Origin: a bacterium
GTDB lineage: Bacteria; Patescibacteriota; Minisyncoccia; Minisyncoccales; CG1-02-41-26
Assembly (NCBI GenBank): GCA_021163625.1
Contig: JAGGTS010000031.1
Span: 1-29,057, forward strand
DNA length: 29,057 nucleotides
Direction of reading: 5' to 3'
Shown here: piece by piece, positions 99 to 29,057 of the stretch
Layout: each line of letters opens with the position of its first letter
How positions within the stretch are numbered: position 1 is the first letter of the stretch
Notes under the pieces: generated by a model
The model's input: only the letters and a program-made list of their open reading frames with translations
The model's database searches: none
Told to the model about the DNA's origin: nothing
Made by a program: the position numbers and the translations under genes

Positions 99-385
99 TG
101 TGCTTACCCATGGCAAGTATAACCAAAAGCACAAAAATTCTAAATCCTAAATCCTAAATTCTAAACAAATTCTAAATTACAAATTACAAATCAAAATAGT
201 TTGTAAATGACGAAACCCGAATGACGAATGACGAAAAAATGACCAATGACTAATAATAAAGATATTTAGTCATTGGGAATTTGGTATTTTTTCGGGTTTC
301 GGATTTAGGAATTCGGGTTTTTCCCAGCGACTCCATCTCTGAAAAATAAGTTGCTCAGGATGTGTGCTTACCGATGGTAAGCACA
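99..385. repeat. Palindrome-bounded heptamer-repeat element, copy A (no ORF)
   Basis: Degenerate TGTGCTTACC-CAT-GGCAAGTATA at 99-121 and perfect TGTGCTTACC-GAT-GGTAAGCACA at 363-385; CTAAATY and ATGACSA heptamers; inverted homology to 21785-21931 and 28900-29057. Confidence 0.9.
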
Positions 386-397
386 AGCAAATATTAG

Positions 398-21695: not shown

Positions 21696-21935
21696 AAAAT
21701 TGTGCTCGCCAAGCAATATCTTGGGCTTGTGCTTACCCTTAAACCAAACTCTAAACTCTAATATCCAAATCCTAAACAAACCACAAATTCCAATGACCAA
21801 ATGTTTTTATTATTGGTCATTGGTCATTTTTTCGTCATTCGTCATTCGGGTTTCGTCATTTACAAACTATTTTGATTTGTGATTTGTAATTTAGAATTTG
21901 TTTAGAATTTAGAATTTAGGATTTAGGATTTCTAC

Positions 21936-21956
21936 CAACGAGTCCGGGTCTCGTTG
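21936..21956. repeat. CAACGAG-N7-CTCGTTG hairpin, copy without RT
   Basis: CAACGAG-TCCGGGT-CTCGTTG; same 21-mer at 27531-27551 (inverted) and 28807-28827. Confidence 0.95.
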
Positions 21957-21970
21957 ATAGACCTTCCCCC

Positions 21971-22050
21971 TGTCATTGCGAGGAACGAAGTGACGAAGCA
22001 ATCCCAGATTGCCGCGTCGTCCCGCTGAAAGCGGGGCTCCTCGCAAGGCA
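21971..22050. repeat. REP-like palindrome of TGTC/CGTC-ATTGCGAG type
   Basis: TGTCATTGCGAGGA...GAAGCAATC-CCA-GATTGC...CCCGCTGAAAGCGGG...TCCTCGCAAGGCA; inverted copy at 27437-27516. Confidence 0.8.
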
Positions 22051-22300
22051 GCGAAAAATGAAAAACTAAAAATGAAAAACTAAAATGCAAAATTAAAAGA
22101 GATTTTGAATTTTTAATCATTAATAATTTTCTTTGAAATAAAAGCCATGGCAGTTATTTCAAAGAAATTAAATTGGATGAAAAATCAAAAAAAGGGAAAT
22201 TTAGGATTTGTTTAGAATTTAGAATTTAGGATTTTTGTGCTTACCAAGGGTAAGCACAACTTTGTTTTGCGCAATTTTTTACGCCACATAAGGCCAAGCC

Positions 22301-25935: not shown

Positions 25936-27183
25936 ATGCAAGATAAAGTCATTGACATTTTGCCTCCCGAGGAAAGCAACCAGGAAAAGCGTTTAGAAAA
26001 GCACATTGAAATCAAAAAGAAAAAAGGGCATCGTTTTTTCGTTGTTATTTTGGTTTTATTGGCGCTTTCTTTTTCTGTTGTTTTCTTTTCTACCGCCTAT
26101 TCAAGCCTTAATATAAAACTTCAGATAGCCCAGAGGGAAGTTAGCATTCAAGACGAAATTGAAGCGGATGTCAGCCAGCTTTCAGTTGATTTTGACAAAA
26201 AGATAATACCAGCAAGGATTTTTAAATCAGAAAAAAAGGCGGTTAAAACATTCAAATCAACAGGCGAAAAAGAAGAACAGGGAAGGGCAGAGGGATTTAT
26301 CAGGATTTACAATAATAGCCGTTCCGGTTCGGTTGCCTTAAGGGCAAATACGCGGTTTCTTTCATCAAAAGGAGCAAAAATATTTACGATTCAAGACAAG
26401 GTAGTTATACCCCCCGCGCGCGTTGAAAACGGAAAAACAGTTGCCGGCTTTGTTGACGCGAAAGTTGTTGCCCAAAATCCGGGGCCTGATTACAACATAG
26501 GCCCGTCAAAGTTTTCTGTTCCGGGGTTAGTCGGCACTAATTATTATTATACTATTTGGGCAGAGTCAAAGAGCGATATGAAAGGCGGTTTTGCCAATAA
26601 AATTAGCATTGTTTCGCAAAATGATTTAGATAACGCAAAGAATAAACTGCAGGAAGAGTTAAGAGAAGAAGCAATCAGCCAGATAAAAAATGCGCTTGCC
26701 TCAAAATTTATTGTCCCAAAAGAAGCGTTTTCTGTTGATAATTTCCAATTTTCTTGCAACAAAGATGTCGGCGAACCAGCAGCAGAGTTTGAGTGCAGCG
26801 GCGACCTTTTAATGAAGGGAATAGGGTTTAAGCTTTCTGATATAAAAGACCTTGCTTCTTATCTTATCAAAAGCAATTATAAAAGTTTATCCGAAAAGCT
26901 TAGGGAAGAAACCGTTGTCCTTGATTATTATCCAAAAACTATTCTTCTAAAACAAGGAAAAGTTATTTTGTCTCTATCAGCAAAAGGCGACCTGTACAAA
27001 GCGATTGAAAAAGAAATACTTTTGTCGCAGATTATCGGCAAAGAAAGCAGCCAAATAGAAAGGGCTATTTTAAAAAGCTGTCCGCAGGCAGAGGGCGTAA
27101 AGCTTGAATTCCGGCCGTTCTGGGTTAAAAAGGCTCCAAAAAATCCCGAAAGAATTAAAATCCAGCCGGAATTTGCAGACTAA
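25936..27183 (+). CDS. Single-pass membrane protein with baseplate J/gp47-like domain
   Basis: TM helix at ~aa 34-54; GFIRIYN...LRANTRF...VIPPA...VVAQNPGPDYNIGP pattern. Confidence 0.65.
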   Translation: MQDKVIDILPPEESNQEKRLEKHIEIKKKKGHRFFVVILVLLALSFSVVFFSTAYSSLNIKLQIAQREVSIQDEIEADVSQLSVDFDKKIIPARIFKSEKKAVKTFKSTGEKEEQGRAEGFIRIYNNSRSGSVALRANTRFLSSKGAKIFTIQDKVVIPPARVENGKTVAGFVDAKVVAQNPGPDYNIGPSKFSVPGLVGTNYYYTIWAESKSDMKGGFANKISIVSQNDLDNAKNKLQEELREEAISQIKNALASKFIVPKEAFSVDNFQFSCNKDVGEPAAEFECSGDLLMKGIGFKLSDIKDLASYLIKSNYKSLSEKLREETVVLDYYPKTILLKQGKVILSLSAKGDLYKAIEKEILLSQIIGKESSQIERAILKSCPQAEGVKLEFRPFWVKKAPKNPERIKIQPEFAD

Positions 27184-27436
27184 ATTAAAAGTTGTGCTTA
27201 CCCTTTTTGTACTTGCCAAAGGCAAGCACAAAAATCCTAAATCCTAAATCCTAAATTCTAAACAAATTCTAAATTTCCCTTTTTTTGATTTTTCATCCAA
27301 TTTAATTTCTTTGAAATAACTGCCATGGCTTTTATTTCAAAGAAAATTATTAATGATTAAAAATTCAAAATCTCTTTTAATTTTGCATTTTCATTTTTCA
27401 TTTTTCATTTTTCATTTTTCGTTTTTCGTTTTTCGC

Positions 27437-27516
27437 TGCCTTGCGAGGAGCCCCGCTTTCAGCGGGACGACGCGGCAATCTGGGATTGCTTCGTCACTTC
27501 GTTCCTCGCAATGACA
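27437..27516. repeat. REP-like palindrome, second copy
   Basis: Reverse complement of 21971-22050. Confidence 0.8.
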
Positions 27517-27530
27517 GGGGGAAGGTTTAT

Positions 27531-27551
27531 CAACGAGACCCGGACTCGTTG
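27531..27551. repeat. CAACGAG-N7-CTCGTTG hairpin downstream of RT
   Basis: CAACGAG-ACCCGGA-CTCGTTG, 71 nt beyond the RT stop. Confidence 0.95.
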
Positions 27552-27622
27552 GTAGAATTCCAATAGTTTAGTAATTTGAATTTGGATGTTAGCTGACAGG
27601 TAGCGGATTTTAGATTGAATGT

Positions 27623-28795
27623 TTAAGTTTTGCGCCTGTTTTCTTTTTCCAGTTTTCTCTCAATTTTCCCGATTCTTCTTTCCAGTTTTTTCAGCAAACC
27701 AGTCAATTTTTTCAACTCCTCCAGAATTAATTTTTGTTCGTATTTGTAGCCTTTTTCCTCTAATTCCAGTTGGAAGTGTAAGGTTTGCTCGTCTGCCAGT
27801 TTTCGCGCCTTTTTAGCCATTTTCCGAAAAATATGCTTTTTTTTACAAGTATATTTTTCTTTTATTCCCAGAAGTGATTTTAAGCCGAGATTTTTTAGTA
27901 TTTTATTTGTCAGGAAAAGATTCCCTTCTTTGTTCCTGCTGTCTTTGTTCCGGCTTAAATAACGGCGTAATCTCATCCTGATAAAGCCATCAAGTTTTTC
28001 AAAAGTTCTTTTACAATGAGCGAATTTATAGTAGTGGCCAAAGCCCAAAATTTGGTTGTTTAAAGATTTGATGATTGCTTTTTGAGGTTTTTTTCTTGTT
28101 AAACGGGTTAATTTAATAATTTTCTTTTTAAAATTTTCAATTTTTTCTTCCTGAATCGTGAAATAACCGGCAAAAAAATAAAAACCGATAAAATTAACCT
28201 TATCTTGATGAAATTTTCCAGATTTTAATTTCTTTTCGTTTATTTCTAGATTTAATTCTGTTAATTTTGGCAAAATTAAGTTTTTGAGCAGAAATTCCGG
28301 CTCTTTCTTGTTTTTGCAAAAAACTAAATAATCATCCATCTGCCGAAGAAAAGGGTTTTTAAGGTTTAAGTCTAAATCCAAAAGAAAAACACTTGCTAAA
28401 ACCCAAGAAAGACGAGAACCGATTGATAGCCCTTTGCCATAGGGTGATTGAGATAAAAAGATTGGAATTTCATTTTTCAGATATTTTTTAAATCTTCTTG
28501 AGGGTTGCTTATGCTGGATTTTTTGATAAATCTCAGACATTTTTTTCAGGAGAATTTGATGATTGATGGAGGGATAATAAAGCCGAATATCAAAACGCAA
28601 AAAATAGGGATATTTTTTGGAAGTTTCTTTGACAAAGTTCAGGGCTTTGGACGGAATCGGCTGAATTAAAAAATGCTGAGGAAATTTTTCTTTTATTCTT
28701 GGCCTGAATTTCCGCAATAAAAAATCAGCCAGAAGTTTTTCCTCGGGTTTTTTGCGGGCTTTAAAATAAGGAAGATTATTTGTATTTTTAGGCAT
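27623..28795 (-). CDS. Reverse transcriptase with group II intron maturase-like thumb, N-terminally short
   Basis: RT3 FLRFDIRLYYPSINH, RT4 GLSIGSRLSWVLASVFL, RT5 FLRQMDDYLVF, RT7 VNFIGF, thumb LNNQILGFGHYYK...LDGFIRMRLRRYL. Confidence 0.9.
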   Translation of the reverse strand: MPKNTNNLPYFKARKKPEEKLLADFLLRKFRPRIKEKFPQHFLIQPIPSKALNFVKETSKKYPYFLRFDIRLYYPSINHQILLKKMSEIYQKIQHKQPSRRFKKYLKNEIPIFLSQSPYGKGLSIGSRLSWVLASVFLLDLDLNLKNPFLRQMDDYLVFCKNKKEPEFLLKNLILPKLTELNLEINEKKLKSGKFHQDKVNFIGFYFFAGYFTIQEEKIENFKKKIIKLTRLTRKKPQKAIIKSLNNQILGFGHYYKFAHCKRTFEKLDGFIRMRLRRYLSRNKDSRNKEGNLFLTNKILKNLGLKSLLGIKEKYTCKKKHIFRKMAKKARKLADEQTLHFQLELEEKGYKYEQKLILEELKKLTGLLKKLERRIGKIERKLEKENRRKT

Positions 28796-28806
28796 ATAAC
28801 GTTTAT

Positions 28807-28827
28807 CAACGAGTCCGGGTCTCGTTG
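28807..28827. repeat. CAACGAG-N7-CTCGTTG hairpin upstream of RT
   Basis: CAACGAG-TCCGGGT-CTCGTTG, 11 nt from the RT start codon. Confidence 0.95.
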
Positions 28828-28899
28828 GTTAATTTGTTTGTAATTTGTAATTTAGGATTTGTTTAGAATTTAGGATTTAGGATTTGAGATTTAACATTT

Positions 28900-29057
28900 T
28901 GTGTTTACCCTTGGCAAGCGCACATCCTGAGCAACTTATTTTTCAGAGATTGGGTCGCTGGGAAAAACCCGAATTCCTAAATCCGAAACCCGAAAAAATA
29001 CCAAATTCCCAATGACCAAATGTTTTTATTATTGGTCATTGGTCATTTTTTCGTCAT
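28900..29057. repeat. Palindrome-bounded element, copy D (inverted copy of A, runs off window)
   Basis: Reverse complement of ~232-385 with a few substitutions; shares the 28900-28922 palindrome with copy C. Confidence 0.92.

Follow-up and report, generated by a model that had tools for sequence, protein, structure and literature searches.

A single-copy UG38 reverse transcriptase in the likely cargo position of a DNA repeat cassette of a Patescibacteriota bacterium

Among bacterial reverse transcriptases (RTs), UG38 was defined as a small class 2 UG/Abi group found only in metagenomes of the candidate phyla radiation (CPR) and without an extra domain, and its describers called its association with defence inconclusive (Mestre et al. 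2022, PMC9226505). GTAG-tagged repetitive extragenic palindromes (REPs) are short imperfect palindromes with GTAG at one end, multicopy and extragenic, and are often arranged in inverted pairs that form larger structures (Di Nocera et al. 2013, PMC3733652). Here we analyse a locus that bears on both, an RT gene in a palindrome-bounded unit of repeats near one end of contig JAGGTS010000031.1, from a bacterium of the Minisyncoccales (Patescibacteriota). The window is this entire contig of 29,057 bp (C57), which belongs to a genome of 579 kb in 68 contigs, 93% complete (G000); the relatives with which we compare it are 61 genomes from the same family and order. A preliminary description of the window had proposed a new retroelement system, in which the RT copies or reshuffles the structured RNAs around it. 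We think it likely instead that an intact, single-copy UG38 RT sits where cassettes of a DNA repeat family carry their cargo, and that the repeats spread without the RT.

The RT is a protein of 390 amino acids (aa) with fingers and palm that carry an invariant pair of aspartates (DD), a group-II-like thumb (GIIM) and a long C-terminal helix. RVT_1 and GIIM (E=7.9e-14) are the only known domains that a Pfam search finds in it. The PADLOC RT_UG38 profile matches residues 1-313 over its full length (model positions 1-309 of 309) with E=5.5e-159, the runner-up being UG17 with 1e-26, and an alignment of 32 homologues leaves the catalytic DD and 44 further positions invariant. As judged from these comparisons, the RT is an intact, full-length member of an already defined but uncharacterised family, and it looks catalytically competent. 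The gene is single-copy in the genome. In a profile search of the PDB, group II intron RTs come out on top, with matches to 7uim and 6ar1. An AlphaFold model (pLDDT 84) searched with Foldseek likewise retrieves group IIC intron RTs first (GsI-IIC, with a template modelling score of 0.63); after these, the closest solved sequences and folds are G2L4, DRT9 and DRT2. The likeness to the group II intron RTs (GsI-IIC and the IIC enzyme of E. rectale) and to G2L4 lies in the common fold of fingers, palm and thumb (X). The RT differs from the group II intron RTs in having no intron RNA, in an identity of only 17-20%, in a shorter N-terminus (the profile begins near residue 120 in the intron enzymes), and in its C-terminal end, where the final ~55 residues are predicted to form a single long helix, a coiled-coil tail, in place of a DNA-binding domain. 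By analogy with solo UG/Abi and G2L enzymes, the RT probably makes cDNA from cellular RNA or from RNA of its own locus, in an accessory and possibly defensive role.

The unit around the gene is built with a striking symmetry (Table 1). Each end carries a palindrome, composite on the left and degenerate on the right; inside these lie arms of heptamer repeats that are inverted relative to each other (27232-27275 and 28849-28892, 93% complementary over 44 nt), and the same 21-bp hairpin stands on both sides of the open reading frame (ORF). The RT is the sole credible gene in the unit, and three RT-less relatives of the unit lie within the 29 kb: a complete X element, a composite copy, and a partial copy ended by the contig edge. 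All these features had been given in the preliminary description and are present, at positions equal to those it claimed or a few bases off. The arrangement of palindromes, arms, hairpins and RT-less relatives is far beyond chance. The repeats and the RT can each be followed on their own.

Followed on their own, the modules of the unit recur on 17-21 contigs of the genome, often at contig ends, with 80-99% identity in the BLAST matches listed. A 375-nt RT-less unit matches 48 of the 61 relatives, as against two of the 61 that have UG38. Matches to module D together with the hairpin number 28 in G004, 11 in G033 and 5 in G022, and module D is much commoner in G004, which is RT-less, than in the genome that carries our RT. 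A search for RVT_1 in G004, G008, G038, G016, G010, G033, G034, G036, G048 and G051 returns none, and each of these genomes has 10-27 module matches. What module counts do rise with is the number of PF05635 (23S_rRNA_IVP) genes, which encode four-helix-bundle (4HB) proteins: Spearman's rho is 0.59 over the 61 genomes, and PF05635 genes are present in 17 of the 21 module-rich and 16 of the 40 module-poor genomes, both figures being uncorrected for kinship. The hairpins also invite comparison with GTAG-tagged REPs and with repeats like miniature inverted-repeat transposable elements, which they resemble in being short imperfect palindromes, multicopy, extragenic and GTAG-tagged (PMC3733652). They differ in forming one module among others in larger mosaics, to which heptamer arrays also belong, and in that a RAYT/Y1 transposase (PF01797), which could mobilise such hairpins, is absent from the 93%-complete genome.

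Followed on its own, the RT leads to loci of another kind. A large protein search finds at least 120 UG38 clusters (at 90% identity), which are 49-74% identical to the RT and all of ~380-400 aa. Their records carry the names Patescibacteria, Paceibacterota, Nealsonbacteria or Colwellbacteria, in agreement with the CPR-restricted host range first described (PMC9226505). Our RT is like them in its full-length match to the hidden Markov model, its CPR/Patescibacteria host, its being a solo RT without extra known domain, and its sporadic distribution; it is unlike them in being set in repeat cassettes. At locus L088, 23 nt separate the RT start from a divergent S26 peptidase gene and another 110 nt lie between the RT and the downstream gene, and at L089 the spacers are 30 nt upstream and 91 nt downstream. 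The nearest homologues (73-83% identity: L111, L113, L115, L130 and L131) likewise sit tight against a divergent S26 peptidase gene. An all-against-all BLAST of the genes beside UG38 reveals no universally conserved neighbour. The preliminary description had named the flanks of homologous RT genes as the place where a retroelement would fail to hold together, and there the flanks are absent: a heptamer array of at least 3 units within 200 nt of the gene is found in 2 of 34 distinct UG38 loci elsewhere. Because the modules abound in RT-less relatives and UG38 homologues elsewhere are without them, the flanks are not specific to the RT; they are a genome-wide repeat family that spreads at the DNA level without need of this enzyme.

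The repeats do enclose genes, and one of their enclosures repeats the frame of the RT unit. The genome has four PF05635 genes, none beside the RT and all on other contigs. On C50 and C62 the gene is bracketed exactly by inverted heptamer arrays, and a third gene, at C16:10290-10832 (L141:1392-1934), lies within an X element, in its apical loop. Since a 4HB gene fills the loop there, the complete X element at 99-391 of the window looks like an emptied, cargo-less 4HB cassette. The cassette on C62 is the closest counterpart of the RT unit. On the left, the two have the same composite palindrome and arm (82% mean column identity), and on the right they agree in arm, palindrome and X element (95% over 221 nt); where the unit holds the RT, C62 holds a PF05635 four-helix-bundle gene like that of 23S intervening sequences (IVS) and like Avd. 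In both, the minus strand encodes the cargo, and the start codon abuts the right arm. Because the unit and the C62 4HB cassette have both ends in common, we place the RT in the cargo slot of a repeat cassette. The heptamer-armed, IVS-like 4HB cassettes of C62, C50 and C16 are thus like the RT unit in having inverted heptamer arms around one gene whose start abuts an arm. The RT unit differs from them in its cargo and in the extra non-coding modules C, D and hairpins, and it is not in an rRNA. The second possibility raised in the preliminary description, that the RT is exchangeable cargo in a hairpin-delimited cassette system, therefore stands in part, in that the same ends hold a different gene on C62.

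As to the genomic setting, the convergent 415-aa gene next to the unit (25936-27183) is a core gene, present in 35 of 37 relatives, and of 11 relatives inspected, 9 have infA-rpmJ-rpsM after it, with rpsM and rpsK following within 330-700 nt. In our genome infA, rpmJ and rpsM are found at C11:13528-14714, just inside a contig tip made of the same modules, so that C57 and C11 are probably adjacent. This synteny suggests that the RT and its repeats are an insertion of more than 2 kb at a conserved intergenic site, between the 415-aa core gene and infA-rpmJ-rpsM. A join of the C57 end to C3 by way of X elements was also considered and rejected, as the orientations do not fit.

On these observations, the cassettes are long hairpins, assembled from GTAG-tagged hairpins and GC-rich modules as well as inverted heptamer arms and terminal palindromes, and they have settled in the intergenic DNA of this bacterium and of its relatives. 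At other sites their cargo is a 4HB gene, or they are empty. Most likely the RT entered such a cassette, or was enclosed by one, through recombination at shared arms or hairpins, and this capture would have taken place inside the insertion between the core gene and infA-rpmJ-rpsM. Several points weigh against this reading. The relatives are distant (their neighbour protein is at most 42% identical), and the RT might conceivably have a recent, lineage-specific role in moving the modules. Between each end of the gene and the nearest module lie from a few bases to a few tens, with a hairpin on each side; this fit of RT to modules is tighter than at the MurB gene or the gene resembling a histone deacetylase (HDAC), which are also flanked by modules, and could reflect more than passive enclosure. 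UG38 is itself an uncharacterised family. Finally, the join of C57 to C11 is unassembled, and it is across this gap that we infer the insertion and the full structure.

The alternative that survives best is coincidence: an ordinary accessory RT gene would have received two independent repeat elements in the intergenic spaces that border it, without any cassette logic or exchange of cargo. Modules do fill many intergenic regions, and MurB and the HDAC-like gene are flanked on both sides. Arm-hairpin ends abut unrelated, ordinary DNA on C23, C54 and C66, and C67:13616-13793 is an RT-less paralogue of the block of hairpin, arm and palindrome upstream of the gene. We still consider coincidence unlikely, if worth keeping in mind: the derived composite palindrome on the left and the arm/palindrome/X block on the right are both common to the C62 4HB cassette, and in the two cassettes the start codon of the cargo stands against the same arm, with repeat DNA 8 nt from the ATG of the RT. 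A bolder version of the cassette reading, which we regard as improbable, would make these elements swappable-cargo, gene-shuffling cassettes of CPR bacteria, filled by an RT in one case and by an Avd-like 4HB gene in another, with RT and 4HB proteins acting together in trans on the plentiful hairpin RNAs, as a dispersed retro-system resembling both diversity-generating retroelements (DGRs) and IVS.

The retroelement of the preliminary description, an autonomous one in which the RT reverse-transcribes and spreads hairpin/heptamer RNAs with the RT-less copies as non-autonomous partners, is already largely refuted, and we give it very little credence. It drew on the RT-less copy at 21926-22279, which is the unit without the RT and without one hairpin, on the strong fold of the 444-nt 3' flank of the RT (z = -8), and on an RT of intact appearance. 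Against its novelty stands the assignment of a single-copy gene to the defined UG38 family, whose homologues elsewhere are without the modules. Against the copying of structured RNAs by this RT stand the plenty of modules in genomes that have no RT domain, and module counts that follow 4HB genes, not RTs; neither poly-A tails nor a 5'-truncation pattern was noticed among the copies.

Membership in one of the known RT systems was considered as well, and the preliminary description was right that neither an intron RNA nor a template repeat/variable repeat (TR/VR) pair is present. An Rfam scan of 26800-29057, at the gathering threshold and at E<=10, reports no family, group II intron models included, and no TR/VR-type repeat is found by self-comparison of the window or of 20 homologue loci. 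The RT is not that of a retron (it reaches 23.9 bits with NF038233, whose cut-off is 235, and no retron RNA family is found). Nor is the locus a group II intron, as the RT has the maturase (X/thumb) domain without the ribozyme domains I-VI and scores 104 bits with TIGR04416 against a cut-off of 300, or a DGR, as neither a TR/VR pair nor an Avd gene adjoins the RT. Two derived forms of these systems need a word more. Class C introns target sites after stem-loops, and a class C-like group II intron could have inserted after a DNA hairpin, lost its ribozyme and decayed; the GIIM domain and the group IIC intron RTs that lead both the sequence and the fold searches are what one would then expect. 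This is hardly credible in view of the missing intron RNA domains and the low TIGR04416 score, of a gap between hairpin and ATG of only 8 nt, which leaves no room for domains I-III, and of a whole UG38 family whose members have tiny flanks and no intron. The PF05635 four-helix-bundle proteins share their fold with Avd of DGRs, so the RT might work with the four Avd-like proteins encoded in sister cassettes, one of which has both ends of the RT unit; such a split DGR-like system is scarcely plausible, given the absence of TR/VR pairs, the presence of 4HB genes in 33 of the 61 relatives, mostly without an RT, and the resemblance of the relatives' pairs of weak 4HB match and RT to true DGRs with a different RT. 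These pairs (G005:C17:1904-3619, G022:C10:2414-3631 and G009:C6:257-1483) consist of a weak PF05635 match beside an RT that is 24-33% identical to ours, and they look like ordinary DGR cores.

Table 1. Coordinates of the RT unit, of its RT-less relatives in the window, and of features at other UG38 loci. Positions without a prefix refer to the window.
Feature	Position	Strand	Remarks
RT gene, 390 aa, UG38 family	27623..28795	-	RVT_1/GIIM domains, UG38 profile, alignment, predicted fold
Composite terminal palindrome, left end of unit	27193..27230	.	same composite form at C62:104-143
A-rich heptamer arm (TAAATCC/TAAATTC units)	27232..27275	.	inverted partner of 28849-28892
Module C, AT-rich	27276..27386	.	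internal long hairpin ~27292-27360; repeated at 22103-22190, on C66 and C65
Seven-unit TTTTTCA/TTTTTCG heptamer run	27387..27435	.	
Module D, GC-rich branched-hairpin segment	27436..27521	.	three copies in G000; matches in RT-less relatives
GTAG-tagged 21-nt hairpin, distal copy, A-type core	27528..27553	.	hairpin itself 27531-27551
RT 3' flank	27554..27622	.	no other copy in genome
Hairpin, RT-proximal copy, tag GTTA not GTAG	28804..28829	.	hairpin itself 28807-28827
T-rich heptamer arm (arm')	28831..28892	.	common to C62 4HB cassette
Terminal palindrome, degenerate copy, right end of unit	28897..28922	.	
Partial X element, ended by contig edge	28923..29057	.	28899-29057 matches 228-386 at 93%
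Complete X element	99..391	.	palindrome, arm, central hairpin, arm, palindrome
Composite RT-less copy	21729..22264	.	X (reverse complement), arm, hairpin, D, heptamer run, C, arm, palindrome
UG38 3' motif, examples	L015:5094-5116, L008:2137-2163, L014:5255-5278		~20 other loci as well
Convergent ORFs downstream of UG38 RTs	L002:2653-3501, L081:4298-6421, L009:5191-6198, L089:4273-5136		
Extra copies of UG38 5' end on L003	L003:7-97, L003:983-1135, L003:2897-3100		compared with L003:3964-4225

Several finer details of the unit can be added to Table 1. The right part of the composite RT-less copy at 21729-22264 is 94-97% complementary to 27239-27561. The hairpin reads CAACGAG[A/T]CC[C/G]GG[A/T]CTCGTTG on both sides of the RT and has seven exact sites in the genome, six of them with CTAC/GTAG beside the stem. 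The two copies that flank the RT agree in the orientation of the outer stem but have reverse complements at the three asymmetric core positions, as a small inversion of the loop or core between the stem arms would produce. With the proximal hairpin 8 nt upstream of the ATG, the unique DNA that belongs to the RT is practically the ORF alone. On the 3' side, the predicted fold pairs ~27562-27600 with the far heptamer arm, and by eye this stretch resembles a degenerate arm, which suggests that repeat-derived sequence starts ~20-60 nt from the stop. A scan of the unit for promoters and terminators gives sites no more numerous than in shuffles, and the transcription start of the RT would lie in the arm/palindrome/X region. 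Module D would translate to a DCFV..LAMT-like peptide, of a sort known from spurious ORFs of many phyla.

The other UG38 loci have a feature of their own. In most of them a palindromic motif of ~23 nt (near CCAAGGGTTRACCCTTGGGCAAG) lies 35-180 nt past the RT stop, usually once per locus. Allowing at most 5 mismatches, 12 of the first 20 other loci that were checked have it, and metagenome loci add further instances. The motif matches no Rfam family. As an RNA hairpin it was rejected: 81% of cells pair, but covariation does not exceed that of shuffles, so it stands as a palindrome conserved in sequence, not as a demonstrated RNA helix. Among the 61 relatives the pattern occurs in 7 genomes, against 3 for the reversed control pattern, and by eye just two instances look real, one in G019, which has the RT, and the other on contig C3, listed here under our own genome, G000. 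In 15 of 17 compared loci the largest of the ORFs just past the RT is convergent to it, and the majority of these look pilin- or lectin-like (N_methyl, Fib_succ_major, Cys-rich C-termini), with the 3' motif between the RT and that gene. Our RT differs from most of the UG38 loci examined in having neither the motif nor the convergent pilin/lectin-like gene. On C3, where no RT is present, the UG38-type motif (L107:1499-1521) adjoins a convergent Lcl_C lectin-like gene (1676-2332). Because an X element and a heptamer arm there occupy the position expected for the RT, we suggest that the RT and its usual partner were split by a repeat-mediated rearrangement. Some UG38 loci show variations of other kinds. 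By eye, a small opposite-strand ORF resembling GIY-YIG interrupts the RT gene at ~465 nt in the metagenome contigs L129, L130 and L131, and a comparable ORF lies just downstream of the RT at L013 and L016. The Colwellbacteria contig L003 holds three additional partial copies of the UG38 5' end, with ~80% identity.

The analysis removes a tempting false lead, a "new retroelement" drawn from symmetry alone. The UG38 family of CPR bacteria is far larger than originally described, and at many of its loci the conserved 3' palindromic motif together with the convergent pilin/lectin-like neighbour gives a usable lead. In these genomes, heptamer-armed cassettes with the same ends can enclose different genes, and the X element, read as an emptied 4HB cassette, would link the heptamer repeats to one protein family and not to reverse transcription.

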